Positions 2,220-47,816 of a stretch of 64,000 bases of DNA are shown piece after piece (position 1 is the first letter of the stretch; each line of letters begins with the position of its first letter). The position numbers and the translations under genes are program-made. The stretch comes from Kiritimatiellia bacterium. Its GTDB lineage: Bacteria; Verrucomicrobiota; Kiritimatiellia; RFP12; UBA1067. The stretch spans positions 7,464-71,463 of the forward strand of contig JBJEWA010000135.1 in assembly GCA_051884805.1 (NCBI GenBank), written 5' to 3'. Below the pieces are notes generated by a model, which saw only the letters and a list, made by a program, of their open reading frames with translations, had not been told where the DNA came from and made no database searches.

Positions 2220-3356
2220 CTATTCCAATGCGCGTACGCAGAGGTTCTTGGCGCCCACGACGGGGAAGAACGACGTGCCGTCGCCCGGCCAACCCTGGTG
2301 GTGGACCACCCGCCCGCGGAAACGGCTTTCGGGATCGTAGACGCCATACTTCATCTGCGAAACCGCCGGATGCGTCCCGTGGCCGTGCTCATAGTCGATG
2401 CCGCCCACAATCACGTTGCAGATTCCCTTGCGGTGGCCGAAGAGATTCGTGCGCGTCGTCGCCAGAATCGTGCGGTTGTGCTGCGCCACCACGTGGTTGA
2501 TCATCGAGAGGTGCGTCGAATCGTGGAACACAATCCCCTCTTCGCAGTTGTGGACGTAAAGATAGCTCGCCACCGTATGTTCGCCGAGGACGAGTCCGTA
2601 GCGGAACCCCTGCACCGCCACGTTGTCGAGCACTTGATTGTCGTTCTGGTCGCCGCTCATCATCAGCCCCACCGTGTGGCAGGGATTAGGCTGGAGTTCC
2701 TTGCCGAGGAACGCATCGCCCACGCAATCGTCGAGACAGAACTGGCTGTCGCGCACGATGGCGCGGCTCACGTTCTGCAAGTTGACGCCGCTCTGGCGCG
2801 GATACATCTTCTCCTTGTCGAGCCGGACGCGGAATTCGAGATTGGCGACCGAAACGAGCGCCGCGCCGAACTTCCCGGCGCAGGACGTGCCTTCCGCTGC
2901 CGCCAGGATGGCCCAGGGCCGCGCCGTCGCGTTCGTCACCGCCGGCGGCAGCCAATCCGAAAAAAGACACGTATTGGACATGCCCATCCGGCCGAACGTC
3001 GTCGGACGGAAGGCGCCGCCCGGCGGGCGCACCATGTACGAATAGAGCAGCTTGCACGGCATCTCGCCTTCAAAGGCGAGGTTGAGCCCCGGTTGCGCCG
3101 GCAGGCAGAGCTGCGCACGGCACGGCCGCCCGCCGTACGTCTCGCGCCCGGGCGCGGACAGGCGGTAGCCTTTGGGCGTGTAGGGAAACGTGATTTTCCC
3201 GCCGCCGCGCGCCGCCACCGCGTCAATCGCCGCCTGAATGGCGGCCGTATCGTCCGTCACTCCGTCACCCTTGGCGCCGAATTCAGTCACCGACACCGCA
3301 CTCGCCGCGCCGCACCACAGGCCTGCGGCAAGCGCCAGAAGAAAACGCCAAGCCAT
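2220..3356 (-). CDS. secreted pectate-lyase-superfamily (Pectate_lyase_3 / GH55-like beta-helix) protein
   Basis: Start trimmed to MAWRFLLALAAGLWCG (signal peptide). The N-terminal VTEFGAKGDGVTDDTAAIQAAIDAVAARGGGKITFP is the hallmark of this fold. Its start codon shares one nt (TGATG) with the stop of the upstream gene. Confidence 0.7.
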   Translation of the reverse strand: MAWRFLLALAAGLWCGAASAVSVTEFGAKGDGVTDDTAAIQAAIDAVAARGGGKITFPYTPKGYRLSAPGRETYGGRPCRAQLCLPAQPGLNLAFEGEMPCKLLYSYMVRPPGGAFRPTTFGRMGMSNTCLFSDWLPPAVTNATARPWAILAAAEGTSCAGKFGAALVSVANLEFRVRLDKEKMYPRQSGVNLQNVSRAIVRDSQFCLDDCVGDAFLGKELQPNPCHTVGLMMSGDQNDNQVLDNVAVQGFRYGLVLGEHTVASYLYVHNCEEGIVFHDSTHLSMINHVVAQHNRTILATTRTNLFGHRKGICNVIVGGIDYEHGHGTHPAVSQMKYGVYDPESRFRGRVVHHQGWPGDGTSFFPVVGAKNLCVRALE

Positions 3357-5956
3357 CAGCGCACCAGGATGACCAGGCCTTCGGGACGGGTGACGACGAT
3401 GTTGTCGAAGAACGCGAGCCCAGGATCGTCGGGATCGGACGGGTCGATCGTGGCCACGCCGTAGGTCGATACGCCCAACGACGAAATCGCCTCGTCGACG
3501 CAGGTGAACGGCACCCCGCGCACGGATGCTACGCGCTCGGCCTGCGTCAGCCTGGTCGTCGGATCCGGATGCGCTACGCCCAGATCGAAGACGGCCAGAT
3601 CGTACGTCTTCCGGTCGAGATCGAGCGTGGCGCGGAAGCGATACCAATGGTCGCGCGCAATGGCGGCGTCGCAATAGCTGACACTTCCGCTCAGTTCCCC
3701 TTCGGTGCGGACCAGATAGCCGATTTTCACGTCATTCATGTTGCCGCAGACATCCTGGGTCTTCGTCGGACGCCCGAACCCGAAATGCAGCGCATGCGCA
3801 TAGATGCAAAGCAGACGGTTAACATCGTTCGTGCCCGAAACGCCCTGCAAATACGTATCGCCGCCGAGATGGATGCGCGCGGCGCCCGAGCTCTCCCAGG
3901 TCCAGTAACGCGGCGGGCGGATGTCCGCCTGAACGCGCAGACGCCCGTGCGGAATCGACGAGCCGAGCGCCTGGACGCCCACGGCGAAGTACTCCGGCGC
4001 CTCGCCCGCGAGCGCCGGATTCTCCCCTGCCGTCACAAACATCGGCGATGTACCACAGTGGCGGCGGATCCAGTGGTCTTGCCCGTTGTCAACCTGCGGC
4101 ACGCTGCCCATGATTCCGCCGCGCACGAGATTGAGCCGACGCGTCGACTGCTGGCCGGTGAACTCGTAGAAGGCCGTCGCCGATCCGTTGCGCCAGAACT
4201 TGACGCTGTCCCAGTACACCGTGCCGGGCGCCGTCGTGCCCGCCCCGTAAGTCCAGAGCGAAAACGAGCTGACCGGCCCCGTGAAACCGGGCGCGAAGGC
4301 GAGATTCGTCTGCTCGCACACGAGTTCCTCGTCCGTCGGCTCGTAGGTGGACGAACGGGAGGTCTCGCCGAACTGGTAGAGCTTGAAGCCGTATGTCCGT
4401 GCGTCGAGGTCGAGATTCACCGTCACGCGATACCAGGTATTCGAGACGAGCGCGCTGCCGCGCACGGATTTGTCGCTGCCATTCGACCAGGCCGCCTCGA
4501 ACTTCTTCTTGTCGTTGGAGGCGGGCATCATCGCGCCGATGCGGCAGGCGTAATAATCGCCCGTGCGCGTGGCATTGCTGCCCGTGTACAGCAAATCGCC
4601 GCCGATGATGAAGAAAAGCTGGTCGGTCGAAGAGCGGTACCACTGATCGGGCAGCCGGAAGTCGCACGTGCCCTTCAGCGTGCCACCCTCGCATTTCATG
4701 CCCAGCGTCTGGGACGCATTCGCGAATACGCTGCTGTCGTGGGTCACCGCGAGCTTGACGCCACCCGCGTCGCCCGTGTCGGCCGCCACCGGACGGATGA
4801 ATCCGCCGCCGACCTGATTGCACCGCCGCCAGCCGTCCATCCCCAACTGCTGCACCGTCTCGCTTGAGCCGTGCGGATCGGCGATAATCGGCTTGCCGAT
4901 CGCATAGGACGAGCAGGTGCGCGTCCAACTCGACGTCGTCACCGAATAGGCGTACGCCGTGGAACCTTCCGGCACGACCGTGCGGTAGCGGCGCACGTTG
5001 AAATCGTTCTCGTAGAAGCGCACGAACGTCTCGCTCCCCGGCTTCTGCCACTCGCAGACGAGATTGTCGAAGGCGATCGTGTCGGAATTCGAAATGCCGC
5101 TCATCACGACGGCCAGACCCTGGATTGGCCCGTTCGCCTCGCTCATGGGCGTGTAGAGATAGTAGCTGCCGGACTTTGTGGCGAGCGTCGCTTCCGTCTC
5201 GAGCGTCGGATGTGCCGTGCCGAGGTCGGCCCAGTAGAAGGTCAATTTACCTGTGGCCAAGTTGACCTCGCCGCGCACGCGGCACCAATGCCCGGCCGCC
5301 ACGACCGAGCTGCGCGCGACCTGCGCGCTTCCCCCTCCGGCGACGGTGCTGTAATAGAAAATCGTCGTCGTTTCATTGCTCTTCGAGTTCGCCTGCAACC
5401 CGAAGTTGAAGAGCGAACCCGTCTGGGACCAGTCCATGTTCGTCAGGTGCTTGCGCGCAACCGGCTGCAGCCGGAGGTAGGCCGTCGTACTGCCCCATTT
5501 GGACGGCACGCGCAGGTCGCCCTGCACGCGCAAGACGCCGTCCGTAATCGAGTTGTAGAACGGATGGACGATGCCCGTGCGCTTCTGGGCGGTCGCGCTG
5601 GAGGAAAGGAATTCGCCGAATTGGTTGCCCGCGTCGTCGCGGCAGTAGACGCCGAAGGTGAGGCTCTCGCCCGATGTCACCATGCGCCAGTTGTCCTGGG
5701 AATCGGCGAGATTGCCCGAGGAGTACGGCAGGTCGGGATTGTAGATGCCGCTGCCCAGGTTTTTCGCGAGCCGCTTGTCGGGCGCATACCCCAATTCATA
5801 CCACCGGCCCGTCTGCACGGGCCCGGCCGAGGTGCGCACCGCAAAATCGTTCGCGTAAAACGGCTGCGCCTCGCCGGAGGCGACCGACGCCAGCAGCAGC
5901 CCCGCCACGCCCACAATCCGGCGCACTCGCACGTCAACCCTCGTTCCTTTCACCAT
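3356..5956 (-). CDS. 866-aa secreted protein with three tandem ~280-aa beta-sandwich (ConA/LamG-like) modules; C-terminus ends GLVILVR
   Basis: Start set at MVKGTR..., which has a GAGGAGG SD 8 nt upstream and a signal peptide. The ORF-track ATG at 6028 lies upstream of the predicted -10 box. Modules begin FYANDF / FYENDF / FYEFTG and end FDNLVCEW / WDSVKFW / FFDNIVV. Confidence 0.7.
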   Translation of the reverse strand: MVKGTRVDVRVRRIVGVAGLLLASVASGEAQPFYANDFAVRTSAGPVQTGRWYELGYAPDKRLAKNLGSGIYNPDLPYSSGNLADSQDNWRMVTSGESLTFGVYCRDDAGNQFGEFLSSSATAQKRTGIVHPFYNSITDGVLRVQGDLRVPSKWGSTTAYLRLQPVARKHLTNMDWSQTGSLFNFGLQANSKSNETTTIFYYSTVAGGGSAQVARSSVVAAGHWCRVRGEVNLATGKLTFYWADLGTAHPTLETEATLATKSGSYYLYTPMSEANGPIQGLAVVMSGISNSDTIAFDNLVCEWQKPGSETFVRFYENDFNVRRYRTVVPEGSTAYAYSVTTSSWTRTCSSYAIGKPIIADPHGSSETVQQLGMDGWRRCNQVGGGFIRPVAADTGDAGGVKLAVTHDSSVFANASQTLGMKCEGGTLKGTCDFRLPDQWYRSSTDQLFFIIGGDLLYTGSNATRTGDYYACRIGAMMPASNDKKKFEAAWSNGSDKSVRGSALVSNTWYRVTVNLDLDARTYGFKLYQFGETSRSSTYEPTDEELVCEQTNLAFAPGFTGPVSSFSLWTYGAGTTAPGTVYWDSVKFWRNGSATAFYEFTGQQSTRRLNLVRGGIMGSVPQVDNGQDHWIRRHCGTSPMFVTAGENPALAGEAPEYFAVGVQALGSSIPHGRLRVQADIRPPRYWTWESSGAARIHLGGDTYLQGVSGTNDVNRLLCIYAHALHFGFGRPTKTQDVCGNMNDVKIGYLVRTEGELSGSVSYCDAAIARDHWYRFRATLDLDRKTYDLAVFDLGVAHPDPTTRLTQAERVASVRGVPFTCVDEAISSLGVSTYGVATIDPSDPDDPGLAFFDNIVVTRPEGLVILVR

Positions 5957-6067: not shown

Positions 6068-6096
6068 TTGCGCCGAAAAAGGACGTGTGCTATAAT
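6068..6096 (+). promoter_or_regulatory. sigma70-like promoter TTGCGC-N17-(TGc)TATAAT, 6 nt upstream of ATG 6103 (leaderless candidate)
   Basis: Read directly: the -35 is at 6068-6073 and the -10 at 6091-6096, preceded by TGc. Confidence 0.45.
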
Positions 6097-6102
6097 GGCG
6101 GC

Positions 6103-7335
6103 ATGGAAGCTTCCCTTTCCCCGGCCGGCGCGCGGCGCGTGCTGCTGCTGTTCTGCCCGCTGCGCAAATCGTCGCGCGACCGTTTCGCCGGCGTCCTGCG
6201 CTACAACCTGCGCACGAACTGGGAACTGTCCGTCTTGCAGGCGAATTTCTCGGAGACGCCCGACAAGACGCTGCTGGCGGAACTGAAGCGCTTCCGTCCG
6301 CACGGCATCGTGCACATGGCCGGGGCGGGCGTGCGCATCGATGCGGCGCTCCGCCGCGCGCGACTTGCGGAGCGGCCCGTGCGCATCGCCTTTGAACACC
6401 GGCGCACCACCCCCGGATCCGCCCCGGACGGCAGCGTGTGCATCGACAACGAAAGCGTGGTGCGCGCGGCGCTCGAAACCTTTCGCCGCCGGGGGCTCGC
6501 GCACTTCGCCTACGCGAGCACACTCACGCGCATCAGCGATCCCCACGTGGCGGTGCGCCTGGAGGCGTTCAACCGCCTGGCGCATCCGCCCAAAGGCGTC
6601 GCGGCGACGCTCGTCGCGCCCGCGCGCGGTGCGCTGCCGGATGTCGCGCGCATCGCCCAGTGGCTCGCGCGCCTGCCCAAACCCTGCGGCGTCCTGCTGT
6701 TCAACGACCAGACGGCGCTGCCGGTCTACGCCGCCTGCCGCCAGGCCGGCCTCACAACGCCGGGACAGATCTTCCTCCTCGGCGTGGACAACGACACGAT
6801 GGTCTGCGACAACATGAATCCCGGGCTTTCCAGCATCCTGCCGGACTTCGAACGTTCGGGCTTTTTCGCCGCCAGCCTGCTCGACCGCTGCTTCCGCCAG
6901 GGCGACGCGCCGCGCGGGACGACGCGCATCGAATACGGCGTGGCGTCCGTCATCGAGCGCGCCTCCACGATGGACACGTCCGGGGCGTCGCGCTACGTGC
7001 TCCGCGCGCGCGAATACATCGAACACCATCCCGGCGAGCGCCTCACCGTCGGCGCCATCGCCCACGCGCTCAATCTCTCGCCGCGCCTCCTGGAGAAACA
7101 CTTCGCCGCCTGCGCCGGGCGGACGCTTCAAGCGGAACTGCTCGACCGCCGCTTTGCGCGCCTGCGCGAACTGCTCGTCACGACGGACCGGCCGGTCAGC
7201 GAACTCATCGACATGTGCGGCTGGAACTCGATCTCGAGCGCCAAGCGGATCTTCAAGGCGCGCTACGGCGAGACGATGCGCGCCTGGCGCGCCTCGGGCG
7301 GCGATTCCCGCCACGGCCCCGCGACATCCATCTGA
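6103..7335 (+). CDS. XylR-like transcriptional regulator (periplasmic-binding-protein-like sensor domain + C-terminal AraC-type HTH)
   Basis: The C-terminus ...HALNLSPRLLEKHFAACAGRTLQAELLDRRFARLRELLVTTDRPVSELIDMCGWNSISSAKRIFKARYGETMRAWR is an AraC dual HTH. It is a paralog of 37408..38571 and divergent from an exoprotein operon. Confidence 0.85.
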   Translation: MEASLSPAGARRVLLLFCPLRKSSRDRFAGVLRYNLRTNWELSVLQANFSETPDKTLLAELKRFRPHGIVHMAGAGVRIDAALRRARLAERPVRIAFEHRRTTPGSAPDGSVCIDNESVVRAALETFRRRGLAHFAYASTLTRISDPHVAVRLEAFNRLAHPPKGVAATLVAPARGALPDVARIAQWLARLPKPCGVLLFNDQTALPVYAACRQAGLTTPGQIFLLGVDNDTMVCDNMNPGLSSILPDFERSGFFAASLLDRCFRQGDAPRGTTRIEYGVASVIERASTMDTSGASRYVLRAREYIEHHPGERLTVGAIAHALNLSPRLLEKHFAACAGRTLQAELLDRRFARLRELLVTTDRPVSELIDMCGWNSISSAKRIFKARYGETMRAWRASGGDSRHGPATSI

Positions 7336-10740: not shown

Positions 10741-10814
10741 TGGTTGACCCGCAGGGATTCGAACCCCAACAAGCAGAATCAGAATCTGCTGTGCTACCGT
10801 TACACCACGGGTCA
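10741..10814 (-). tRNA. tRNA-Gln (anticodon CTG), CCA encoded
   Basis: Hand-folded cloverleaf: acceptor TGACCCG/CGGGTCA, anticodon stem GCAGA/TCTGC with loop TTCTGAT, T-loop TTCGAAT, 3' ACCA. Confidence 0.8.
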
Positions 10815-10835
10815 ATCCCGTAATCCCTTTCAGAT

Positions 10836-10912
10836 TGGCGGGGTCGACGGGGCTCGAACCCGCAACCCCCGGATCGACAGTCCAGTGCGCTAACCAATTG
10901 CGCCACAACCCC
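10836..10912 (-). tRNA. tRNA-Asp (anticodon GTC), CCA encoded
   Basis: Hand-folded cloverleaf: acceptor GGGGTTG/CGACCCC, D-stem GCGC/GCGC, anticodon stem CTGGA/TCCGG with loop CTGTCGA, T-arm GCGGG-TTCGAGC-CCCGT, 3' GCCA. Confidence 0.88.
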
Positions 10913-11720: not shown

Positions 11721-12886
11721 AGCTTCTTTCCTCGTTGGGGTTGAGCTGGCAAATCCGGGGGCGCGTTCTGATGGCACGCGGCGGCAAACGTCTCGCCGAC
11801 CACATAGCGCGGCGCCAGCACGATGCGGTCGCCGCCCTTTTTCCGTCCCCGGACCAGAATGTCCTCGACGAGGTCGGCAACCTTCTCCCCCTCCGCAGCG
11901 GCATCAAACGAAAACCGCGTCAACGGCAGGTGGAAGACCGGTCCCAGCCCCACGTTCTCCCACGCGACGACCTTGACGTCGTCCGGAATCCGCACCCCGT
12001 GGTGCATCAAGGCCATCAGCGCGGCGTCCGCGACATGGTCGTCGGTGAAGTAAAGGAGATCCGGCAGCCAGCCGCGGCCCCTCGCCAGCCGCTGCTCGAA
12101 CAAGGCGTTGGCCCGGCGCTTCACCGTCCCGACGACGCCTCGCTCCGGATCGTGCGGATCGACGGCCCATTCCACCACGGCGATCCCGGCCTCGCGCAAG
12201 GCCTGCGACATCGACGCAAACCGTCGGCTGCGCCCGCAGAACACGGTGATGACGCGCCGGACGCCAGCCTGGACGCAGTGGCGGACAAAGACGTCCGTCA
12301 GCGCCCGGTCGTCAAAGCGGACCTCCCAGTCTCCCTTGCCCGAGAACGTCGCCTCCGTGCAGATCTCGACCGTCGGAATCCGGTGCCGACACAGCCGTTC
12401 GACGGCCTCGGCGGGCGGCGTGGCCATGACGGCCAGGTCGTAGTCCTGACGGAGCGCGCTCATGAGCTGCGCCAGCCCCGCGCCGTCCCGCGACTGCCAG
12501 GCCGGAACCGGGAAGAACTGGTAGCCGATGCCGAACAGGCGCGCGCGCAGGATGTCGCCGAGGACGTTGTAGACGTAGTTCTCGCTGCGTCCGCTCGTCA
12601 CGTAAAGCACCCGGCCCTTCCAGCGCGTCGCGCCCCGCGCCGAGACGACGTTGCCAAAGCCCCGCCGGGGGATGAGCAGCCCCTCCTCCCCCAGCCGCCG
12701 CAGGGCGATCTTCGTGATGATTTCGCTCACGCCCAGCGTCGCCGCCAGCGGACGGATCCCCGGAACGGCGTCGCCCGGACGGTACAGGCCCGCATCGATC
12801 GCCCGGCGCAAGCCGTCCTCGACTTGCTCCGTCAGGCTCCTGCCGTCGTTGCGGTCAATGCGAAACGGGATGTGACGGCGACTCAT
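11708..12886 (-). CDS. GntR-type wHTH + LacI/PBP1-like sugar-binding-domain transcriptional regulator
   Basis: The N-terminal RSLTEQVEDGLRRAIDAGLYRPGDAVPGIRPLAATLGVSEIITKIALRRLGEEGLL is a GntR HTH. It has an ATGA overlap with the upstream gene. Confidence 0.8.
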   Translation of the reverse strand: MSRRHIPFRIDRNDGRSLTEQVEDGLRRAIDAGLYRPGDAVPGIRPLAATLGVSEIITKIALRRLGEEGLLIPRRGFGNVVSARGATRWKGRVLYVTSGRSENYVYNVLGDILRARLFGIGYQFFPVPAWQSRDGAGLAQLMSALRQDYDLAVMATPPAEAVERLCRHRIPTVEICTEATFSGKGDWEVRFDDRALTDVFVRHCVQAGVRRVITVFCGRSRRFASMSQALREAGIAVVEWAVDPHDPERGVVGTVKRRANALFEQRLARGRGWLPDLLYFTDDHVADAALMALMHHGVRIPDDVKVVAWENVGLGPVFHLPLTRFSFDAAAEGEKVADLVEDILVRGRKKGGDRIVLAPRYVVGETFAAACHQNAPPDLPAQPQRGKKLCTR

Positions 12887-14682
12887 CGCAGCAAGACCGG
12901 AACGATGCGGTCGCGGCCGAGCCTGACCGACTTGCGGACGCAAGCCGTGCCGACGCGCGCCTCGATCTCGACCGTCAGGGGGCGGTCGGAATATTCGCTG
13001 ACGAACGCCAGCGAACCCCGGGGCGAATCGATGCGCTTGACGACGGCGTTCCCCGACCGGCAGCGGATCTCCCCGCCCGGACGCGCCGTGGCGATGATGT
13101 CCTCGTAGGGCGCGAGCAGGTTGATCGCCTCGGCCATCGCCTGCATGTCCTTCGCGTCGAACGGGCACTCGCCCCAGAAGCCAAAGCCCTTGCCGCCGGC
13201 GGAAACGGTCTCCAGGATGTTCCACTTGAGCATCTCGGCGTTCAGGTCGCAGTCGAAGGCCCGCTGGAACGGATAGCCGGCGCAGAGGATCGGCGCGACC
13301 GGAATCTCCCCGCCCACGATGCGGTCGAGGACGTAGGTGTCGCGCCACGGCAGGAGCATGTCGTAGGGGTTGTAGTTGGCATAGACGTCCACGTAGACCA
13401 TGGGCGCAAGGATGTCGAAGACGCCCTTGAAATAGACCGGGTCTTCGAGCGTGCCGCGATAGGAGTGGGACTGCCGGTAGTCGCGGTGGCCGGAAAAGCC
13501 GGCAAAGGACCGGTGATAGGCGTTGTAGATCATGAAGCGGAAGCGCCGTCCGTCGCCCTTCGCGCGCAAGTGGCCCTCCATGGCCTCGCGATACTCGCGG
13601 AAGAAATCGGCGTAGCGTCTGGCCGCGAAGTCGAAGCGGTCGCCGGACGGATGCGCCTGGCAATAGCGGGCGAACTCCGCCTTGCAGCGTTCGCAGTAGC
13701 AGATGGCCTCGCCGTTTTCGACGCCCGGCAGCAGGGTCTCCCCGTACATCTCCGGATCGACCGTATGGAAGCAGAGCCCCCGGTCGAGCAACGCCTTCCC
13801 CTGCTCGATCCACCGGCGGAAGTGCTCGCCGCGATAGGAGAGGCACAGGGCGGCGCGCGTCTTCTGCCCGTTCCTGAGCGTCGCCGCGCCCTCCTCGCTC
13901 TCACGCCCCCTGGTCCACCACCATTCGCGCACCCAGGCGATCGGATCAAGCCCGGGAATCTCCCGGCACTTGGCGATCGTCGCGTCGATCAGCGGCCACC
14001 CCCAGTCGTCCCCGGGCTCCACGTAGGTCCACATGTCGAGCAGGTTGAAGCCGCAGCGCTTCAGGCCGGCCAGGTCCGGATAGGTCGCGAAGAAATCGCT
14101 GGGCATCGAGAAGTAGGCCGGCAGGCGGCGGAACCCCTTCGCCTCGGGAACGCGCACGACCTCGACCGGCAGCGTCTTCGCCTCCTGCCGCTGCGCTCCG
14201 CCGTCCCACTCGCCCCAGTAGCGGACGGAGAACCGGGCGCCTTCGGGCATCGGCTTGCGGAGCCTCCAGTAGAACGTGTACTTGTCGGCGCGCGGCCCGG
14301 GAACGAAATGATAGACGTTGCCCTTGCGCTTCATCGTGAAATCCCTGAAGCCGCCGCAGAATTCGACGGACTCCGGCACTTCCACGAACAGCTGCGGACC
14401 CTTCGAGGCGTTGATCGGCTTGAAGTGGACGGTCGAGACCACGTCCGGGGACACGTAGGCCGTCTGCTCGATGTTGGACGTGAAGGCGAACCCCGACTTC
14501 TTGCGCGGCAAATACAGCAGCTTCTGGCTCGTCGTCAGCGCCGGGCGCGTCATGACGGCCCCCGGAGGGATCTCCGGGTTCCAGGCCACCGGGAAGGACA
14601 GCATGTCCTCCGGCGTCACCGCCGGGGCGACGCCGCACCACAGCGCCGCCGCCACCGCCGCCAGCCGCGCGCCTCCGGGCAT
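12883..14682 (-). CDS. 599-aa secreted protein of unknown function (glycosidase-like; contains CYCERCKAEF motif); ends ...IVPVLLR
   Basis: Start MPGGARLAAVAAALWCG (signal peptide). TGATG overlap with the upstream gene and strong coding bias. Confidence 0.65.
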   Translation of the reverse strand: MPGGARLAAVAAALWCGVAPAVTPEDMLSFPVAWNPEIPPGAVMTRPALTTSQKLLYLPRKKSGFAFTSNIEQTAYVSPDVVSTVHFKPINASKGPQLFVEVPESVEFCGGFRDFTMKRKGNVYHFVPGPRADKYTFYWRLRKPMPEGARFSVRYWGEWDGGAQRQEAKTLPVEVVRVPEAKGFRRLPAYFSMPSDFFATYPDLAGLKRCGFNLLDMWTYVEPGDDWGWPLIDATIAKCREIPGLDPIAWVREWWWTRGRESEEGAATLRNGQKTRAALCLSYRGEHFRRWIEQGKALLDRGLCFHTVDPEMYGETLLPGVENGEAICYCERCKAEFARYCQAHPSGDRFDFAARRYADFFREYREAMEGHLRAKGDGRRFRFMIYNAYHRSFAGFSGHRDYRQSHSYRGTLEDPVYFKGVFDILAPMVYVDVYANYNPYDMLLPWRDTYVLDRIVGGEIPVAPILCAGYPFQRAFDCDLNAEMLKWNILETVSAGGKGFGFWGECPFDAKDMQAMAEAINLLAPYEDIIATARPGGEIRCRSGNAVVKRIDSPRGSLAFVSEYSDRPLTVEIEARVGTACVRKSVRLGRDRIVPVLLR

Positions 14683-16672: not shown

Positions 16673-16681
16673 GCTACCTCC

Positions 16682-18197: not shown

Positions 18198-18488
18198 TCA
18201 ACGTACGAGAATCACAAGTCCGCGATTCAATGTCGTGGCGAAGTCGCCGACGACGTTTGAAAACGCCCGGCTGAACGTTCGCAGATCCAACGTGCCGTCG
18301 GCGCCCTCGCCCGTGGCGGCGGCGGACTCAACCGTTGACACCTCGACGCCGACATGGCCGGAGGCATCCCAGAAACCGTCGGCCGCATCGGCCGGCAGAT
18401 ACGGACTCATGTCATTCCAGACAAACGACGCAACCGCCGTTGCCGACAACAGCATCATCGCCGCCAGAAGCATCCCCAGTCTTCGCAT
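18198..18488 (-). CDS. 96-aa secreted protein; C-terminus ends GLVILVR
   Basis: Start MRRLGMLLAAMMLLSATAVA, preceded by a GGAAAGGAGGGA SD. First gene of the 18488->11016 string. Confidence 0.55.
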   Translation of the reverse strand: MRRLGMLLAAMMLLSATAVASFVWNDMSPYLPADAADGFWDASGHVGVEVSTVESAAATGEGADGTLDLRTFSRAFSNVVGDFATTLNRGLVILVR

Positions 18489-18644: not shown

Positions 18645-18716
18645 CGGGGCGCAGCCGGGGAATCAGCCTCCTGACTGCGGAAGTCGCGACGATACGCGAT
18701 GTCAAAGGGATGACAT

Positions 18717-19655
18717 TCACTCATTCCCGCCCAATGCCTCCGTCAAAACCGAAAGTCGCGCAGCTTCCGCCTCAACGAAGATACGAATCATCGGCACGGC
18801 ATTGGCATCCCGGTGATAGACGGTGAACGCATCATAGTAAGCGACTCGATTTTCATATTTGATGCTGATCGGAAGATATCCAGCGCGCATAAGGATGAAG
18901 TTGGCGAGAAGACGTCCCGTTCGACCGTTCCCGTCAATGAACGGATGGATTGCCTCAAAACTGATATGGAAAAGCGCAGCCGCCACGAGCGGATGAAGGT
19001 GTGTTGCGTTCAGATCGCGCACCCAGCCTTCCATTTGCGGCACAACGAGATAAGGTTGCGGCGGCGTATGCGCCGCGCCCGTAATGACCACCGGCATCCG
19101 GCGATACACCCCGCGGTCCTGCGGCTGGTCGGCCAACACGAGCGCATGCAGTTCCTTGACCAGACGCTCGCTCATCGCCTCGCCTCGACCGACCACTTCC
19201 GCCAGGAAGTTAAAGGCATCACGATGGCCAATGGCCTCCAGGTGATCCTTGAGCGGCTTCTGGCCGATGGTCACGCCCGCCAGGACGAGCGCGGTCTCAT
19301 TCAGTGTGAGCGTATTACCCTCAATGGCCGTCGAGTTATGGGTGTAGTCAACCATGAACGACTCTTGCCAGCGCTGCTTCTCACTCGGCGTGAGCGGACG
19401 CCGCCTCGACAACAACTCCTTCAGGGAATCGACCTTCAGCACCAATCCCATCAACTCCTTCGGGATTCCACCATAGCGCAACGAGCGCCCATCTACCGGG
19501 CGCGGACAATCGGAAGGAATGCGCCAATGCTTGCCTGCCAGTATTGCCCCCGCAATCTTTCCTTCCACGCACAACATCCGTACGCGGCGCGCTGAAATCT
19601 GCCATCTTTCAGCCGTTTCCCTAACAGAAACCAACTTTTCACCGATTGTTCCCAC
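18717..19655 (-). CDS. Fic-family AMPylase (class II, intramolecular inhibitory helix) with N-terminal excisionase/MerR-like HTH
   Basis: The Fic motif HPFIDGNGRTGR and the inhibitory motif STAIEGN ([ST]xxxE[GN]) lie upstream in the same chain. The N-terminus VSVRETAERWQISARRVRMLCVEGKI is an HTH. GTG start. Confidence 0.9.
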   Translation of the reverse strand: MGTIGEKLVSVRETAERWQISARRVRMLCVEGKIAGAILAGKHWRIPSDCPRPVDGRSLRYGGIPKELMGLVLKVDSLKELLSRRRPLTPSEKQRWQESFMVDYTHNSTAIEGNTLTLNETALVLAGVTIGQKPLKDHLEAIGHRDAFNFLAEVVGRGEAMSERLVKELHALVLADQPQDRGVYRRMPVVITGAAHTPPQPYLVVPQMEGWVRDLNATHLHPLVAAALFHISFEAIHPFIDGNGRTGRLLANFILMRAGYLPISIKYENRVAYYDAFTVYHRDANAVPMIRIFVEAEAARLSVLTEALGGNE

Positions 19656-19661
19656 GCGGAT

Positions 19662-19670
19662 AGTATAACA
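19662..19670 (-). promoter_or_regulatory. extended -10 box TGtTATACT, 6 nt upstream of the Fic GTG
   Basis: The minus strand reads TGTTATACT-atccgc-GTG(19655). Confidence 0.35.
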
Positions 19671-19867
19671 CAGTATCGGAAGGATAGCAACGGCAAAAAA
19701 TGAATATTCGCCTAACTATACTTCCGTTTCCAGAATGAAAGATACGGATGACGTGTGTTCAGTCCCATTCTCAACCAGACCAGACTTCGCCATGAGAAGC
19801 CAATCCTCAAATGCGGTTGTTTTGCTCGCGATCACACAACATTAGGCATGTAATTTGGATAGTCGAT

Positions 19868-29753: not shown

Positions 29754-32700
29754 TCAGCGAATCCACATGACGAAACTATGCGCGACAAGCGTCGCCGACA
29801 TACCGCTCCCATTGAATCTGTACTTCACCTTCCATCCCTTGGGGACGTTCTCCATGACGATGGCGTTCGCATCGCCGTCAAACTTGTCCACCTCGAGTAT
29901 CTTCCCAGCCTCCTTAAGGCCGTTCAGCTCGACCGTAAGACCGCCGTTGGCCGCCAATTCGAGGCAACCGATCCGACATCCCCGACCAAGCGTCACGCGC
30001 GATCCATCGCAAACGCGAACCGCGCCTGGCAGCTCCTGGACGCCGAGATAGGAATCGCCGCCAGACGCAAACACCAGCTCCGCGCCCTCCTTCACCACCA
30101 GGCGACCGCAGCACTCGACGGACCTCACCGCCACGACGCCGGATTCGACGGCGAACGCCGCATCTTCCGCCACCTCGACAACAGGCTTCGGGGCGTCTCC
30201 GCCGGACTCTCCCGCCAGATAGCTGCTTCGGACGTCTTCAGCGCTCAATGCCGTGCGATAGACCGCGAAGTCCCCAATGTACCCCTTGAACGGGCGATCC
30301 GTTCCCGTCGCCAAAGCCGCGCCCAGGTTGATTGTTCCAATCGCCACATTCAGGTCATCCGCCAGAGTGTCGCTTCCCTTGAGGACGCCATCGACATAGA
30401 TCGACCGGACGCGCGCAACCGACTCATAGGTGACGACGATCTGATGCCAGGTCGACTTGTCGCCTGAAAAGACCGCATCGTCCGGACTGGTACTGATCGA
30501 ATTGTCCGCCGACCAAGCATAGTGCTGATACCCGGGGGCGCCCGACAACTGTCCCGAAAGGTCATTGAAGAAGGTGAATGCGTTCATCGCACGTACCGTA
30601 CGAGGGGTTCCCCAGCTCCAAACGCCCAAATAGGCATTCGCGCCCATCTGAGTGATCTGATCGGGAATCACCCACGCAACGACGGTAAAGGCGTCATTCC
30701 CTTGGGGAAAGGCGTCCACATCACCCTCCTTTATACGCAGATAACTCGATCCGTCGAACCTCATCGCCCCAGGGACATCCGAGGCAAGATCCGCTACGTC
30801 GCCGGATGTCGGCGCAAAGCGGAACCCCCTGCCGTCGTCATCAGCCAGCGGGTCGCCGCCTTCAAAAGACCAATGCGCGACCAGCTCGCTGGCGTATGCG
30901 GGCGAGTTCGCGACAACGAGAGTTCCCTGATCGACGACAACCTCGGAAGGCAGCTGCGACGCATCCGAAACAACGACGACGCCCGGCCCTTTCTTCACGG
31001 CAGCGCCGTCGCCGAGCAATCGACCCACCGCCATGCCGCCCTCGCCGAACACGACCTGGGCGCCGCCGGCAATCTGCACTGCGCCGGGGAAGTTGCCGTC
31101 CGACACGAGGGACAGGCAGCCGTCCCGGACGGCAATCGTGCCGTTGCCGGAAAGCCCGGAAACGTCGATCGACGAAGTTCCGCCCAGCGACAACGTGCCC
31201 TCGACGCAAACGGCGCCGTCCGCGACAACCGATGCCGCAGGCACAGTCTTCCCGGAGGCAACGGACAGGGTCGCCGATTCCTCGACGACCAGATCAGCCT
31301 GGCCTTGAAGCGCCGACGAAATCCCGCCTGTCGCCAGCAAAGGAATCTGCTCTGGCGCAACCGCGCAATCCAGAATCATGAAGTCGTCGATCGCGCCCTT
31401 CCAATAACTGTGACTCTCCCCGGACCCCTTGCTCATGCCAATGGCGAAATCGGACAGGGCTACCGACATATTGCCCGGAGCATCTTCGGCCAGGAGCATG
31501 CCGTCTGCGTAGATCCTTCTGCGCGGGAGCTGCGGATCGTAGGTCACCACCACATGATGCCATTGATCGTCCCAGACGTTGTCATAGACGGACGCATCGT
31601 TCACGAAATACGAATCGTAGGCGACCAGATCATTGCCCCAGTTGTAATGGATATAGCCGAATTCCTCACTGGAGGAATCGGTGCCGGACGTCCTCAATGC
31701 GTTGATCTGACCGCTCGCGGCAACACCCCATGAGTAGATGCCGCACTTCTGACGCTTCTGGCCGGGATCGGGCTTCACTCTGACCGAGACCGAAAAGGCC
31801 GCATTGCCCGACGGAAAATCCGTATGATCCGACGCGGCAAACCGCTTGGACGCAAAAGGATTCAGGACCAGGGTATTGACATCGGTCGCACCGGCAAACG
31901 TCACGGCATCGGGATTGGCGCTCACCAGTTCCGTCCACGAATCCTCGCCTTTCGAAGGAATCAGACGATAGCCGTTCCCCGAACTGTCGCGCCCCGGATC
32001 TTCCGAATCAAACGTCCAGTGTGCCACCACGTGCCGCGAAAGATCGACCGCGCCCCCGACTTCCAATTCGCCCTCTTTCACGCAAACCCGGCCCGACTGA
32101 AGGCTGCCGACCGTCAGCTTTCCCGATCCCGTCTTCTCGACCGTGCCGACACCGCGCAAGGCAAGACCGGTCTCCGCCGGAGACGAAATGTCAAAGTGCG
32201 TCTTCGCTCCAGCGGCGGTTTCAACGGTTCCATTCCCCGTCACGGCGGCGATCGTCTGGCGTGAAAGCTCATTGACGAGAACACCCGTATCGGCAACGGA
32301 CACGGTTGCCGTCGCCGGGATGAAGTCCTCGCCTGTCGGCATCCCCGCGGCCAAGACCGAAGCCTGCGCGGCGGTCAGCGCACACGAATAGATCCGCAGG
32401 TCGTCGATCCGACCCTTGAAGTTCCGATCGCCCGCCGCCAGGACATTTCCGATATACAGCGAATTGTCCGGCGACAAGTTCAGATTAGGCGTGAAATCCG
32501 GATCGTCATACGCCGCGAGCGCCCCGTTCAGATAAACCTGCCGCTTATGACCGGTCGCTGCGGACGGATCCCATACACAAAGGCAATGAACCCACTCGCT
32601 CCCCGAGAAGTCCGCCGGCCATTTGAACTTGAAGTCAGAACCGTAGAAAAAGAAATTGCCGTTGCCGCTCTGCAGGCCAAATCCGGCGCATTGACCGCTC

Positions 32701-33140
32701 GCCCGCTGTCCCCAACTGCAAACTCCGCCGCTTTCTCCGCCGGCTTCAGGACAAAGCCAAACCGAAATCGAAAAAGGAGTGTTTCCGGCGGGCAACCCCA
32801 GACATCTCGTCTGAAAACGTGTCGCTCCGTCAAATCGAAGCGCTCCGCCGAATTTCCCCGTTGCCGCGACAATGCCTTCAACGGGAATCTTCAAGTCGCG
32901 ATTCAGGCTGCCGCTGTTCCGCCCCATCGCCTGGCGATCGTCAAAGGAGTAACTGACCAACGGCATTGGAAGCGCCGATTCATAGGCCGCGGCGCCCTTC
33001 GGAATCGAAATGGACGTGAGATCGGCCCACACAGAGTCAACATGGGCCTTCCCGGACACCACGACCTCCGACCCCATGCAGACGGAGGCCAATGCGGCTT
33101 GAAATGACAGCATCGACAGCTTGCTTGCTTTCATACTCAT
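29754..33140 (-). CDS. 1128-aa secreted protein with three LamG (Laminin_G_3/ConA-like) domains and autotransporter-type beta-strand repeats; C-terminus ends SFVMWIR
   Basis: LRFDGATRFQT...FSISVWLCPE...FKGRIDDLRIYSCALTAAQ and two further copies (…YWKGAIDDFMILDCAV…, …FKGYIGDFAVYRTALSAED…). ATGA overlap with the upstream gene. Confidence 0.8.
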   Translation of the reverse strand: MSMKASKLSMLSFQAALASVCMGSEVVVSGKAHVDSVWADLTSISIPKGAAAYESALPMPLVSYSFDDRQAMGRNSGSLNRDLKIPVEGIVAATGKFGGALRFDGATRFQTRCLGLPAGNTPFSISVWLCPEAGGESGGVCSWGQRASGQCAGFGLQSGNGNFFFYGSDFKFKWPADFSGSEWVHCLCVWDPSAATGHKRQVYLNGALAAYDDPDFTPNLNLSPDNSLYIGNVLAAGDRNFKGRIDDLRIYSCALTAAQASVLAAGMPTGEDFIPATATVSVADTGVLVNELSRQTIAAVTGNGTVETAAGAKTHFDISSPAETGLALRGVGTVEKTGSGKLTVGSLQSGRVCVKEGELEVGGAVDLSRHVVAHWTFDSEDPGRDSSGNGYRLIPSKGEDSWTELVSANPDAVTFAGATDVNTLVLNPFASKRFAASDHTDFPSGNAAFSVSVRVKPDPGQKRQKCGIYSWGVAASGQINALRTSGTDSSSEEFGYIHYNWGNDLVAYDSYFVNDASVYDNVWDDQWHHVVVTYDPQLPRRRIYADGMLLAEDAPGNMSVALSDFAIGMSKGSGESHSYWKGAIDDFMILDCAVAPEQIPLLATGGISSALQGQADLVVEESATLSVASGKTVPAASVVADGAVCVEGTLSLGGTSSIDVSGLSGNGTIAVRDGCLSLVSDGNFPGAVQIAGGAQVVFGEGGMAVGRLLGDGAAVKKGPGVVVVSDASQLPSEVVVDQGTLVVANSPAYASELVAHWSFEGGDPLADDDGRGFRFAPTSGDVADLASDVPGAMRFDGSSYLRIKEGDVDAFPQGNDAFTVVAWVIPDQITQMGANAYLGVWSWGTPRTVRAMNAFTFFNDLSGQLSGAPGYQHYAWSADNSISTSPDDAVFSGDKSTWHQIVVTYESVARVRSIYVDGVLKGSDTLADDLNVAIGTINLGAALATGTDRPFKGYIGDFAVYRTALSAEDVRSSYLAGESGGDAPKPVVEVAEDAAFAVESGVVAVRSVECCGRLVVKEGAELVFASGGDSYLGVQELPGAVRVCDGSRVTLGRGCRIGCLELAANGGLTVELNGLKEAGKILEVDKFDGDANAIVMENVPKGWKVKYRFNGSGMSATLVAHSFVMWIR

Positions 33141-44018: not shown

Positions 44019-47000
44019 CTACCTGACGATCAGCATCACGCCCGGCGTCGCCGGCCCGACCGCGCCGTAGGTCACGAAGGCGGGGTCGATCGCCGTCAGA
44101 TACTCGGCCTTCACCCAGGCGGCGCCGTCATTGCCGCGCCGGAGGCGCAGTTCGTCGAAGGCGCCGAAGAACGAGGCTTCGTTATGGTCGGCGTCGCAGC
44201 CGAAGACGAGCGGCAGCCCGTTGTCCATGCCGAGGCCCACGGATGCCGTGGCCACCGCCTCGCCATTGGCGTAGATGGTCAGATCGTTGGCGCGTTCGCC
44301 GTTGCGCGTGTACTGGAACGCGAGATGCGTCCATCCCGCCGACAAATCGGGGACCGTCGTCGCCCCGACGCTGGCGGCGCTGTTGCCGCGGGCGTTCAGG
44401 CTGGTGTACGAGCCGCCCAGCTCGACCTCCCAGCCGCTGATGGCGTCGTAATAGGTTTTGCGCGAAACGAGCCGCGGGTAGCCGGAGATCTTGTCGCCGC
44501 CCTTGAACCAGCCGGAGAAGAGAAAGACGTTGCCGACGGCCTGACTGTCGTAATTCGGCACCTCGTACCAGTTACGTCCGAAATCGGTGTGCACGGCCGG
44601 CTGATTCCAGCGGGCGCGTCCGACTTGTCCGCCGCCTTCGTAGTCTTTCGAGCCGCTGAGGTAATGCGTCGCGCCAGGCACGGCGTCGAGTCCGTTGCCG
44701 GAGCAGTCGCGCGCCGGCACGGAATGGGCGTTCTCGTTGAAGTGCCAGACGCCGACATAATTCTTCCACGGACGGCCGACGTCCGCGCCGGCGATGTCAT
44801 CGGCAGAGCCGTAGAAAAGGCGGAGCTGCGTGTCGCGCCGCAGTTCGGGCACGCAGACCCAGACCAGCGACGTGCCGTCCGCATGCCATTCGTCGACCGA
44901 ATGCGGCACGGCGACGAACGCCCGGTCGGCGAAAATCATGTCCGAGCCGTCCTCCGTCCTGAAGTCCGCATAGTCAAACCCCTCGATCGCCGGCGAGAGC
45001 CGCACGAGAACCGGGAAATTGCGTAGGACCTCGTCCTCTCCCAGGAAGTCGGCCGGAATCGTCAGGTCGAGACGCTTGGCGAAATTCCGCTTGGACGGCG
45101 GCGGCAGCTTGCGGATGGTCATCTCGGCCGTGTCGGACTCGCCGGCCAGATAGGCGCCGGACGTCAACGTCACAATCAACGTCTTGTCGCCGTCCGACGC
45201 CGCGTCGACGAGCGGGCGAACCGCGACGTCGACGGAGGCCGCTCCTGCGGGGATTTCAGCCGACCCCGTCGCCGCGCCCGCGTAATTGACGCCGGCGACG
45301 GCCGTTCCCAAGAACGCATAGCTGACCTTGAGCGCGTAACGCGTCGCCGCCGGCGTGTCCGCGCGCGAAATCCGGAAGACGCCCACCGCGGTGTGCATCT
45401 CGTCCGCATCCTCGACCTTTTCAACCGACAGGGAACCCGTGTAGAACGGCTCCGTCGCGAACCGATACTCCGCGCCCGCGACGCTCGTGCCGATGACCGT
45501 GCAGCGGCTGCTCTCGTTCGCCGGCAAGACGGAAATCGGAAACGTTTTCTCCCCCGGATCGGACGTGACGTCCGGGAGCGGCTGAATCACCTCGCCGTCA
45601 TACGATGCGACAAAGGTCCCGCCGCCCGACTTGAGCGTGAACACGCCCTCAAGGCCGCCGGAAGCCGCGCGGCGAACGACGGGAGTGGCGCAGGTGATCG
45701 GCGCCGGGTCGGCCGCCTGGGAGGGGCCGGCCACAAGGAAGTCCGGACGCATCACCGTCGCATAGTCCGCCGCGATGGCCGCCGCGCTCGGGATCCCGCG
45801 CGCAATGCGAATCTCGTCGTAGTTGCCGTAAAGCGACCAGTCGTTGATCGCCGCAGTATTGCCGAACGCGATGGCCGCCCCATTGTCGGTCGGCGCACTG
45901 CCAAGCTTCGCCTCGGCGACAAACTCGCCGTTCGCGTAGACGGCGCACGTCTTGTCGTCATAGCAAATCGTGAGGTAGACCCACTGCTTCTCCGGAGTGG
46001 GGATCGTGACCGCCTCGCCGTCGCCGGCGCCGTAGACATTCAACTTGGTCACGTCGTTCCAGGTCAGTTCCTGTCCCCAACCGCCCGCATCCGACCGGCG
46101 GGACACGAAGCGATACCAGCCGCCACCCGCCGTAACCTGGAAAAAGCCGCTGACCGTGAACTGCGACCCGAGCGCCAGATCGGTGGTTGTGGTCAGCGAC
46201 AGGCCCGCCCGGCAGCTCTCGGCAGGATCACCGTTGCCGCCGTTCTGCCTGGCCTTGCCGACCACCCCCTCGACGCCGACGTTGTATTCGGCGCGCGGGC
46301 CCATGGGCGTGCCGTGGTAGGCGTTGGTTCCGGAGTCGTAGGCCGTGCCGCCATCCTCCCGGAAGTGCCAGACACCGACGTAGTCCTTCCATGTCTCGGC
46401 GGTCGCCGCGCTCTCATGCCCGCTCTTGCCGTAGCAAAGGCGGAAGACCTGGCCCGGGCGACAGGCGTCGAGCCTTACCCAGACAAGGGACTCGCCGTCG
46501 ATGTTCCAGGTGTCGATTTCGTGCTTCAGTTCACGTCCCTCATCATCCGTAAAGACCATGTCCGCGCCCGTCGCATCCGTGAAGTCGGCATAGTCGAAGC
46601 CCGCGATCGCCGACGAGAGCCGCACGAGCACGACTTGCGGGACGTCGACGTCCGGTGCCGACTCGCCGACCGTGAAGCTCACGGACTTCGCAAAGCCCGA
46701 GACGTCGACCGGGAGTTCGTCCACCGCGCGAACGGCTGCATAGGTGAAGAACGAACGGTCGGCCACCGTCCGATACGCGGCAGCGACCTCGTCTGCGCTC
46801 AAGGCGCCGGATTTCAGCCGCAGCTCGTCGATCCACCCGTAGAAGCCCGCCTCCGTGCAGTCGGCGTTCACGCCAAGCCCGAGGCCGCCGCCCTGCGGCC
46901 ACTGCACGGCGGGGAGCGAATCGACGGTGGCCGAGAGACAGCCGTTCGTATAGCAGGCCGCCTTCGTTCCGTCTACAACGAGCGTCAGGTTCACCCAGTC

Positions 47001-47816
47001 GACGCCGGCGACATTCGGGCAATCCGCCAGGAAGTCGTCGTCTCCCTGCGTCCGGAAGAAGACCTTGCGCGGATCGTCCTCAAACTCCAGTTCCCATCCC
47101 GCAGCGGAGCCGGGGGCGGACTTGCAGGACAGCAGCCGCATCCAGCCGACGACGTACTTGGCCTTGAACCACCCGGAAACGGTAAACGCCGAGCTGTCCG
47201 CGAGTGCGGACGCCCAGCCGGACGGTACGATGTGTCCGCCGATGTAGCTTCTGCCGGCATAGTACGTGCAGTTGTTCTGGCCCGCGCGCGAGACGCCCAC
47301 CGCACCGTCCGCACACGCGACCATCTGGTCGGTCGCATGGCCCGAAGGAACCGCCGAATGGCCGTTCCCGGTCGCGTCAGTCAAGTCGCCGGAGGCGTCG
47401 GAACAATGCCAGACCGCCGCATAGCCGCGCCAGACGTCGGCTGGCGCCTGCTGCGTCGTCTTGTCGCTGCCGAAGTAAACCGTCAGCCGAAGGTCTTTCG
47501 CCAGGCGCGGAATCCTGACCCAGACCAGCGACTCGCCGGACGGATCCCACGTGTCGATCTCGTAGGCCAGCTCGGTGCCGTCATTGTCCACAATGGCCAA
47601 ATCCGAGCCGTCCGGCTGTTGGAAGTCAGCATACGAAAAGCCGCTGATGTCGGTCGACAGCCGCAGGAGGGCGGGAAAGTCCGTCACCTCGCCCGAAGCC
47701 GGAACCGAGTCCGGCGAAAGTCCGATCTCCAGGCTCCTGGCGTAATCGCCAGGCGTCAACGCCAGCAGGCTGGCTGCCGGCAGCAAGCAGGCCATCGCGG
47801 CCATCGTCGTCTTCAT
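44019..47816 (-). CDS. 1265-aa secreted protein: three [DUF2341 + LamG] modules plus a Calx-beta-like domain; C-terminus ends GVMLIVR
   Basis: Three copies of FP.L(L/V)RLS..I.GF.YADF...G.D(L/M).F.D......E.D.W......LVWV... (DUF2341), each followed by a LamG pattern (…FTVSGWFK…WIDELRLK…). Calx-beta-like …VNYAG…DKTLIVTLTSG. AAGGAG SD. Confidence 0.8.
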   Translation of the reverse strand: MKTTMAAMACLLPAASLLALTPGDYARSLEIGLSPDSVPASGEVTDFPALLRLSTDISGFSYADFQQPDGSDLAIVDNDGTELAYEIDTWDPSGESLVWVRIPRLAKDLRLTVYFGSDKTTQQAPADVWRGYAAVWHCSDASGDLTDATGNGHSAVPSGHATDQMVACADGAVGVSRAGQNNCTYYAGRSYIGGHIVPSGWASALADSSAFTVSGWFKAKYVVGWMRLLSCKSAPGSAAGWELEFEDDPRKVFFRTQGDDDFLADCPNVAGVDWVNLTLVVDGTKAACYTNGCLSATVDSLPAVQWPQGGGLGLGVNADCTEAGFYGWIDELRLKSGALSADEVAAAYRTVADRSFFTYAAVRAVDELPVDVSGFAKSVSFTVGESAPDVDVPQVVLVRLSSAIAGFDYADFTDATGADMVFTDDEGRELKHEIDTWNIDGESLVWVRLDACRPGQVFRLCYGKSGHESAATAETWKDYVGVWHFREDGGTAYDSGTNAYHGTPMGPRAEYNVGVEGVVGKARQNGGNGDPAESCRAGLSLTTTTDLALGSQFTVSGFFQVTAGGGWYRFVSRRSDAGGWGQELTWNDVTKLNVYGAGDGEAVTIPTPEKQWVYLTICYDDKTCAVYANGEFVAEAKLGSAPTDNGAAIAFGNTAAINDWSLYGNYDEIRIARGIPSAAAIAADYATVMRPDFLVAGPSQAADPAPITCATPVVRRAASGGLEGVFTLKSGGGTFVASYDGEVIQPLPDVTSDPGEKTFPISVLPANESSRCTVIGTSVAGAEYRFATEPFYTGSLSVEKVEDADEMHTAVGVFRISRADTPAATRYALKVSYAFLGTAVAGVNYAGAATGSAEIPAGAASVDVAVRPLVDAASDGDKTLIVTLTSGAYLAGESDTAEMTIRKLPPPSKRNFAKRLDLTIPADFLGEDEVLRNFPVLVRLSPAIEGFDYADFRTEDGSDMIFADRAFVAVPHSVDEWHADGTSLVWVCVPELRRDTQLRLFYGSADDIAGADVGRPWKNYVGVWHFNENAHSVPARDCSGNGLDAVPGATHYLSGSKDYEGGGQVGRARWNQPAVHTDFGRNWYEVPNYDSQAVGNVFLFSGWFKGGDKISGYPRLVSRKTYYDAISGWEVELGGSYTSLNARGNSAASVGATTVPDLSAGWTHLAFQYTRNGERANDLTIYANGEAVATASVGLGMDNGLPLVFGCDADHNEASFFGAFDELRLRRGNDGAAWVKAEYLTAIDPAFVTYGAVGPATPGVMLIVR

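Follow-up and report, generated by a model that had tools for sequence, protein, structure and literature searches.

A 64,000-nucleotide stretch of a metagenome-assembled genome (MAG) of a Kiritimatiellia bacterium (contig JBJEWA010000135.1, 63.7% G+C; hereafter the window) encodes four secreted proteins that end in the same kind of seven-residue tail: typically a glycine, five mostly apolar residues and a terminal arginine, immediately followed by the stop codon. The tail is apparently an undescribed and unusually short C-terminal tag. Kiritimatiellia, a group with few cultured strains, break down polysaccharides and are abundant in animal guts, the rumen and marine sediments. Clusters of glycan-degradation genes make up most of the window; they encode glycoside hydrolases (GH28, GH106, GH43, GH31, GH29), pectate-lyase-like proteins, a 3-keto-disaccharide hydrolase, two FGE-sulfatase-like proteins (FGE, formylglycine-generating enzyme), and AraC regulators fused to periplasmic-binding domains.

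The four tail genes lie on the minus strand, at the coordinates given in the preliminary description that drew attention to their common ends. The gene at 3356..5956 encodes an 866-residue protein that ends in PEGLVILVR and consists of three concanavalin A (ConA)-like lectin jelly-roll modules, each spanning from a 'Y.NDF..R' motif to a 'DNhxh' strand. Its last seven codons (GLVILVR, 3359..3379) are followed by a TGA stop at 3356-3358. The protein is 100% identical to ACI4RD_10030, an NCBI MAG protein of a Kiritimatiellia bacterium encoded on an 82.5-kb contig, and its relatives are found in rumen and gut MAGs (RUG, RGIG); a scan of genome contigs with this family returned two loci. A mini-protein of 96 residues, encoded at 18198..18488, ends in NRGLVILVR (tail codons 18201-18221); it has no recognisable domain and is identical to NCBI ACI4RD_10090. 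The third carrier is a Laminin_G_3 protein of 1128 residues (29754..33140, tail codons 29757-29777), encoded downstream of a GH106 rhamnosidase gene. Its end, HSFVMWIR, is deviant, with Ser replacing Gly six positions before the terminal residue (position -6). An exact-sequence look-up of this protein returned no record, and there were no orthologues among the loci fetched for comparison. The fourth, at 44019..47816 (tail codons 44022-44042), is a 1265-residue protein with three DUF2341+LamG modules that ends in TPGVMLIVR.

A fifth carrier had been proposed, a secreted protein of 599 residues (12883..14682, minus strand) that ends in RIVPVLLR. Judged by its sequence, its membership is doubtful because Gly is missing at -6 and a Pro interrupts the hydrophobic run. 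It had no homologues in the fetched loci and matched no Pfam or NCBIfam family. This gene and that of the 96-residue protein lie close together: the latter heads a same-strand gene run in which it is followed by two tandem paralogous genes for secreted FGE-sulfatase-like proteins (PF03781; 452 and 500 residues; 15314-18184, minus strand), then by that of a 218-residue protein resembling carbohydrate-binding modules (CBMs) and then by that of the 599-residue protein.

All four main tail proteins carry Sec-type signal peptides, as first described. They had also been said to have no other similarity. This holds for the sequences directly before the tails, which show no mutual similarity, but not for the proteins as a whole: Laminin_G_3 domains are common to the 1128- and 1265-residue proteins (BLAST E=2e-4), and the 866-residue protein is made of ConA-like jelly rolls. 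The two identical GLVILVR tails are encoded by GGC CTG GTC ATC CTG GTG CGC and by GGA CTT GTG ATT CTC GTA CGT. Our codon comparison agrees with the earlier one: the codons differ at all 7 of 7 positions, and the conservation is therefore at the level of the peptide and not of the DNA, all the more since orthologues keep the pattern while their residues change. The same difference at every codon led us to reject a DNA repeat or a terminator artefact as the origin of the shared ends.

The tail is widely conserved among the relatives of the window proteins, which agrees with the expectation, set out in the preliminary description, that a genuine tag should recur in orthologues of related genomes. 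All 11 orthologues of the 866-residue protein, down to 26% identity, end in G-x5-R, with G860 and R866 invariant. A profile search of 1.84 billion representative sequences returned 303 relatives of this family, and 113 of the 129 members with an intact last module end in a tail with Arg or Lys. Homologues of the 1265-residue protein number more than 1000. Of the top 120, 86 fit a strict tail pattern and most of the remaining 34 fit G-Φ-x-Φ-Φ-Φ-[RK] (Φ, hydrophobic), while G1259 and R1265 are invariant in the 21 sequences that we aligned. Taken over these two unrelated families, the tail terminates most of more than 200 homologues. The 96-residue protein has a sole homologue (71% identity), which ends in RGMAIILR, with four of the five residues between Gly and Arg changed. 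These comparisons indicate that strong purifying selection acts on the motif in different families, down to 26% identity.

A logo of 136 distinct tails allowed the pattern to be refined. The motif [GSAP]-five hydrophobic residues-R, as initially proposed, was right about the strictly terminal position and too permissive at its start: position -6 is essentially Gly (121/136). It was also too narrow within the run, as position -4 is variable and accepts polar residues (including K, T and Q). The other positions are more constrained (L/F/T/M at -5, I/L/V at -3, I/F/L at -2 and V/I/F at -1), and the terminal residue is Arg in 122 tails and Lys in 14. Position -7 is often Pro (35 of 136), Gly (27) or Ser (21), and there is no conserved Glu. 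The number of residues between Gly-6 and the end is five in every tail examined. The resulting consensus is (P/S/G)-G-[LFTM]-x-[ILV]-[IFL]-[VIF]-[RK]-COOH.

Short apolar patterns can arise by chance, and the preliminary description had named as its refutation a frequency at the C-termini of exported proteins no higher than composition would give. Within the window, a relaxed pattern has 7 matches among 759 six-frame open reading frames (ORFs), and 4 of these matches are the four tail genes themselves. We then used a sample of about 870 kb, composed of 79 metagenome loci fetched with the DUF2341 family, three other loci and the window. As one family served as bait for the loci, the tail ORFs represent a modest number of independent cargo families: 20 of the 54 lack the motifs used for fishing. 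G-Φ-x-Φ-Φ-Φ-[RK] stands at the C-terminus of 45 of the 654 coding-filtered ORFs of the window and the 82 related loci, against a chance expectation of 0.085 on average and of 2 at most (1000 shufflings of the last 30 residues). In the same ORFs, no copy of the motif ends 1-9 residues short of the C-terminus. A comparison of terminal with internal positions in 1777 ORFs (each with at least 150 codons) gave an enrichment at the C-terminus of 424-fold for a strict motif and of 224-fold for a relaxed one. Every tail ORF with an intact N-terminus in the independent subset that we examined, i.e., outside the query family, has a signal peptide. The tail pattern is thus real, far beyond chance and strictly terminal.

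The proteins that carry the tail are diverse. At least five kinds of sequence precede it across the fetched loci: the 'DNhxh' last strand of the lectin module, the '..AEYLTV.D..F.SAS' end of the DUF2341/LamG proteins, the '..DIGCYE' of beta-helix proteins, '..GGELVVTGGG' and assorted strand-turn sequences. The carriers also include leucine-rich repeat (BspA-type) and PATR-repeat proteins. An AlphaFold model of the 866-residue protein (predicted local distance difference test, pLDDT, of 77.6) shows the three jelly rolls, which match the lectin domain of calreticulin, legume lectins and CBM22 in Foldseek. In this AlphaFold2 model, residues 860-866 have a pLDDT below 50 and no secondary structure, and the same is true of the last seven residues of P0130, a protein of an independent family (pLDDT 75.1). 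In both cases the tail lies outside the folded domain and the adjoining residues are modelled with confidence. Sequences and models together indicate that the tail is an appendage common to different cargo and not part of a domain. The window also encodes enzymes with signal peptides and no tail (GH28, GH106, GH43-like, GH31, 3-keto-disaccharide hydrolase), and the glycoside hydrolases that act in the periplasm within these clusters are untagged. On these grounds, the tag marks a subset of the exported proteins, mostly non-catalytic binders and adhesin-like proteins.

We compared the tail with PEP-CTERM (TIGR02595), the C-terminal signal handled by exosortases. Four distant homologues of the 866-residue family (P0256, P0270, P0268 and P0271) end in a true PEP-CTERM, with scores of 17.8-24.9 bits for a cut-off of 16 bits. 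The model gave no match, even at E<=1, in the tail proteins P0001, P0254 and P0239 or in the window proteins. In P0256, P0264 and P0270, which have a single module, the PEP-CTERM directly follows the lectin module, and its PEP starts 6-8 residues past the 'DN' strand, which matches the position of the P-x-G of the tail. The aligned C-termini of the PEP-CTERM homologues (...YDNVSVSVPEPASLQLLLAGVSLGLLVWRRRARR and ...YDNIRISSIPEPGTVALIAVAGLCLLGFGRRR) and of the tail proteins (...FDNIVVTRPEGLVILVR and ...FDNLVVERTPPGLMVIVR) illustrate this equivalence. On this alignment, the tail is positionally interchangeable with PEP-CTERM in homologous proteins. A further homologue, P0260, from a Thermoguttaceae (Planctomycetota) MAG, has a PEP-CTERM-like end just below the cut-off. 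The two signals also exclude each other in the DNA sampled. The contigs of P0260 and P0270 (L084 and L086) encode PEP-CTERM proteins, one of them a PATR protein, and no tails; L083, a 24-kb contig of Kiritimatiellia type, has three tails and no PEP-CTERM, and we found 45-54 tails and no PEP-CTERM in the roughly 870 kb of Kiritimatiellia-type DNA. A few ORFs of this DNA with a C-terminal helix followed by RRR were considered as PEP-CTERM candidates and proved to be ComEC and major facilitator superfamily membrane proteins. On the Planctomycetota-type contigs, a prepilin-like N_methyl+SBP_bac_10 gene (DUF1559-type) follows the PEP-CTERM lectin homologue (L084:11943-12941; L086:6055-6945); we saw no such genes in Kiritimatiellia-type loci.

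The tail and PEP-CTERM therefore have much in common: both stand at the extreme C-terminus of Sec-signal proteins, both run from a small-residue or Pro motif through an apolar stretch to a basic end, both occupy the same site after the last lectin module of homologous proteins, and both occur on LamG, PATR-repeat and choice-of-anchor cargo within the Planctomycetes-Verrucomicrobia-Chlamydiae (PVC) superphylum. They also differ. The tail has five apolar residues where PEP-CTERM has a transmembrane helix of about 20, and one basic residue in place of a basic cluster. It lacks a conserved PEP, the 'PEG' in the window being an isolated resemblance, and it cannot lodge in the inner membrane to await an integral-membrane exosortase. 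One tail protein (L035) has a choice-of-anchor Q domain (NF041518) at residues 1248-1287 of 1297, and the tail follows it directly, within the 10 residues that remain. Choice-of-anchor domains are named for surface proteins with alternative C-terminal anchors, as defined for the A type (bioRxiv 10.1101/2023.03.06.531300).

No Pfam or NCBIfam (June 2026) model matched the tail in searches with 13 tail proteins, extended to E<=1 for the window proteins, in line with the initial failure to place it among known sorting signals, and the literature that we searched on C-terminal sorting in Kiritimatiellia and PVC bacteria does not describe it. The signals of LPXTG/sortase, GlyGly-CTERM/rhombosortase and MYXO-CTERM are likewise C-terminal tags on secreted surface proteins, with a conserved small-residue motif that is a possible cleavage site, and GlyGly-CTERM cargo exits by type II secretion and remains bound to the surface. 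These anchors differ from the tail in requiring a membrane-spanning helix and a basic cluster, and none of their models match it. The C-terminal domain of type IX secretion (T9SS; TIGR04183) also serves as a signal, for the secretion and anchoring of adhesins and glycan-binding proteins of the surface, and its last strand is also hydrophobic with a basic end. Yet it is a folded beta-sandwich of 70-100 residues, whereas tail proteins share only seven residues. The T9SS profile had no NCBIfam match in the 4+9 tail proteins, the regions before their tails are different domains, and we know of no T9SS in Kiritimatiellia. Also comparable are the beta-signal of outer-membrane proteins and the C-terminal strand of chaperone-usher pilins, short strands whose free carboxyl is read in the periplasm by strand pairing. 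These motifs alternate hydrophobic and polar residues and have an aromatic end (Phe, Tyr, Trp) or a penultimate Tyr, whereas the apolar residues of the tail are contiguous (-3 to -1 are all hydrophobic) and its end is Arg or Lys; the tail cargo are soluble multi-domain proteins and not barrels or pilins. The tail has the general traits of C-terminal sorting signals: it is terminal, carried by signal-peptide proteins, shared by unrelated cargo, lineage-specific (as far as the few named sequences tell) and interchangeable with an anchor. As judged from sequence, it works most like PEP-CTERM and other C-terminal sorting signals, yet it belongs to none of their defined families.

We clustered 654 ORFs from 83 sequences to describe the neighbourhoods of the tail genes. 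The recurrent neighbours are AraC/periplasmic-binding protein regulators, GH31, GH84-type NAGidase, GH28, GH9 and a family-less signal-peptide protein of 287 residues. The latter, which matches no Pfam or NCBIfam family, is encoded in the window at 47896-48759 (minus strand), directly upstream of the DUF2341/LamG tail gene and co-directional with it. This arrangement is kept in 14 loci, with a 4-base overlap in L083, and the protein could be a functional partner of the DUF2341/LamG cargo family. The stop of the gene for the 866-residue protein overlaps the ATG of the downstream pectate-lyase-like gene (2220-3356) in a TGATG at 3354-3358, which suggests translational coupling of the two. A regulator that fuses Peripla_BP_3 to an AraC helix-turn-helix flanks each cluster of carbohydrate-active enzymes (CAZymes), at 6085-7335 and 37285-38571 (both plus strand) and at L023:126-1586, and its family recurs in 11 fetched loci. 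We found no prepilin motif of the GFTLIE type in any fetched locus that would link the tail to pseudopilins.

Other features of the window are apart from the tail genes. Two CAZyme clusters are separated by a low-GC island (18700-24400, 48-57% against about 65% around it), which encodes a Fic/DOC+HTH protein (18717-19655), a DNA methylase (20942-22087) and several family-less ORFs, and resembles a restriction-modification or mobile segment gained by horizontal transfer. Tandem tRNA-Gln(CTG) and tRNA-Asp(GTC) genes lie between two CAZyme genes (10741-10912, minus strand). Just downstream of the gene for the glutaminyl-tRNA synthetase, at 41098-42242 (minus strand), a gene for a secreted LTXXQ/CpxP-like protein lies just upstream of one for an extracytoplasmic function (ECF) sigma factor, with an overlap of a few bases, and the pair looks like an envelope-stress module.

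How might so short a tail be used? We are somewhat inclined to believe that it is a lineage-specific, dedicated C-terminal signal for the sorting or anchoring of surface glycan-binding and adhesin-like proteins in gut and rumen Kiritimatiellia. From the alignments, it would most likely stand in for the PEP-CTERM of other PVC bacteria, in function as well as in its exact place in the sequence. The proteins would be exported across the inner membrane by Sec, through their N-terminal signal peptides. The five apolar residues would not form a stop-transfer helix, and the whole protein would be released to the periplasm. Since five apolar residues cannot span a membrane, the flexible tail would be read there as a peptide with a free carboxyl end, perhaps by beta-strand augmentation, in which a hydrophobic groove would take up the strand and a pocket the terminal Arg and its carboxylate; the invariant Gly could serve as a hinge or as a cleavage site. 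Once recognised, the protein would be sent to the outside of the outer membrane and retained there. Type II secretion is the only outer-membrane protein-secretion system listed for the cultured Kiritimatiella, and one may speculate that it is the obvious export route for tail proteins. We hold more tentatively, and on balance rather doubt, the stronger claim that this amounts to a new envelope sorting system, in which a periplasmic reader recognises a seven-residue peptide with no membrane-spanning part, so that dozens of lectin-like proteins per genome are delivered and tethered to the cell surface, and which has replaced the PEP-CTERM and exosortase of other PVC bacteria. Possible readers include a PDZ-like module within the type II secretion apparatus and an outer-membrane protein specific to the task.

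Several observations weigh against a dedicated sorting signal. There is no gene for a receptor, protease, sortase-like, exosortase-like or barrel protein near any tail gene in the neighbourhoods analysed. This absence proves little because sorting enzymes are usually unlinked to the genes of their cargo. The idea of a recognition tag for an export, anchoring or processing system, already put forward in the preliminary description, gains from the choice-of-anchor Q domain and from the position shared with PEP-CTERM, while our search identified no such machinery. The restriction of the tail to one lineage rests on the few sequences that carry taxonomic names. Furthermore, 14 of the 129 distant lectin-family members have the Gly-plus-hydrophobic strand with Q, F, E, N, H, P or L as the last residue (e.g., P0146, P0152, P0160, P0204 and P0205), so that the basic end is not absolute; these may represent a sub-lineage variant of the tag. 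Finally, in the family of the 866-residue protein, the C-terminus lies a constant 16-17 residues after the DN strand (125 of 129 members), and such a spacing would also fit a structural beta-hairpin.

This last point favours regarding the tail as a mere structural element with no targeting role: a DNhxh strand, a P-x-G turn and the hydrophobic strand would form a hairpin, and the tail, as its last strand, would cap or complete the preceding beta-sandwich. P-x-G is indeed a typical turn, and several tails are preceded by sequences resembling strand-turn-strand, e.g., ...DGLYLVRPGMIIIVK. Against this, both AlphaFold2 models leave the tail below a pLDDT of 50 and without a strand, next to residues modelled with confidence. 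The same motif also follows different folds and is present on the domain-less 96-residue protein, it is replaced by PEP-CTERM in homologues, and the internal modules of the same multi-module proteins lack such a strand. We thus find a purely structural role quite improbable. A less unlikely, though still minority, explanation is that the tail is a sticky anchor or assembly strand that acts without any sorting enzyme. It would dock non-covalently to the outer leaflet of the outer membrane or to lipopolysaccharide, to a scaffold groove (in the manner of dockerin and cohesin) or to neighbouring subunits, by strand donation or as a steric zipper, and so build a surface layer of lectins. A short, contiguous, charge-capped run rich in beta-branched residues would be expected to favour intermolecular beta-pairing, the tail is unstructured in the models of the monomers, no gene for a processing enzyme was found near the tail genes, and the cargo proteins are multi-module lectins and adhesins. 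But docking leaves the crossing of the outer membrane unexplained, and we saw no candidate scaffold. The near-invariant Gly and the strictly free C-terminus point instead to a specific reader, and the positional equivalence to PEP-CTERM favours a sorting signal.

The resemblance to PEP-CTERM could also be read as decay, the tail being what remained of this signal once the exosortase was lost: PEGLVILVR reads like a PEP-CTERM (IPEPGTVALIAV...GRRR) from which the helix has been deleted. Alternatively, the tail could be a degradation or quality-control tag for a tail-specific protease, enzymes that prefer apolar C-termini. Neither a remnant nor a degron is easily reconciled with strong purifying selection across families, maintained down to 26% identity, or with an enrichment above 200-fold. 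Every tail examined has five residues between the Gly and the end, the apolar run of the PEP-CTERM homologues has about 15-20, and there is no intermediate among the C-termini listed. A degron is implausible on dozens of large, conserved proteins of surface type, and the terminal residue of the tail is basic and not apolar. We give these two explanations very little credence, less than any other considered here, and retain a dedicated sorting or anchoring signal as the preferred account of the tail.

To our knowledge, every established bacterial signal for C-terminal anchoring of the kind used by sortases and exosortases depends on a transmembrane helix, and a conserved signal of only seven residues implies a different principle of recognition. 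If the sorting account is true, G-Φ-x-Φ-Φ-Φ-R/K followed by a stop codon would let annotators pick out the probable surface proteome of Kiritimatiellia, and within CAZyme clusters the same rule would separate surface binders from periplasmic enzymes. Linear signals for the crossing of the outer membrane by type II secretion are, as far as we know, a long-standing gap, and the tag would be a testable candidate for such a signal as well as a handle for finding new envelope machinery in these bacteria.

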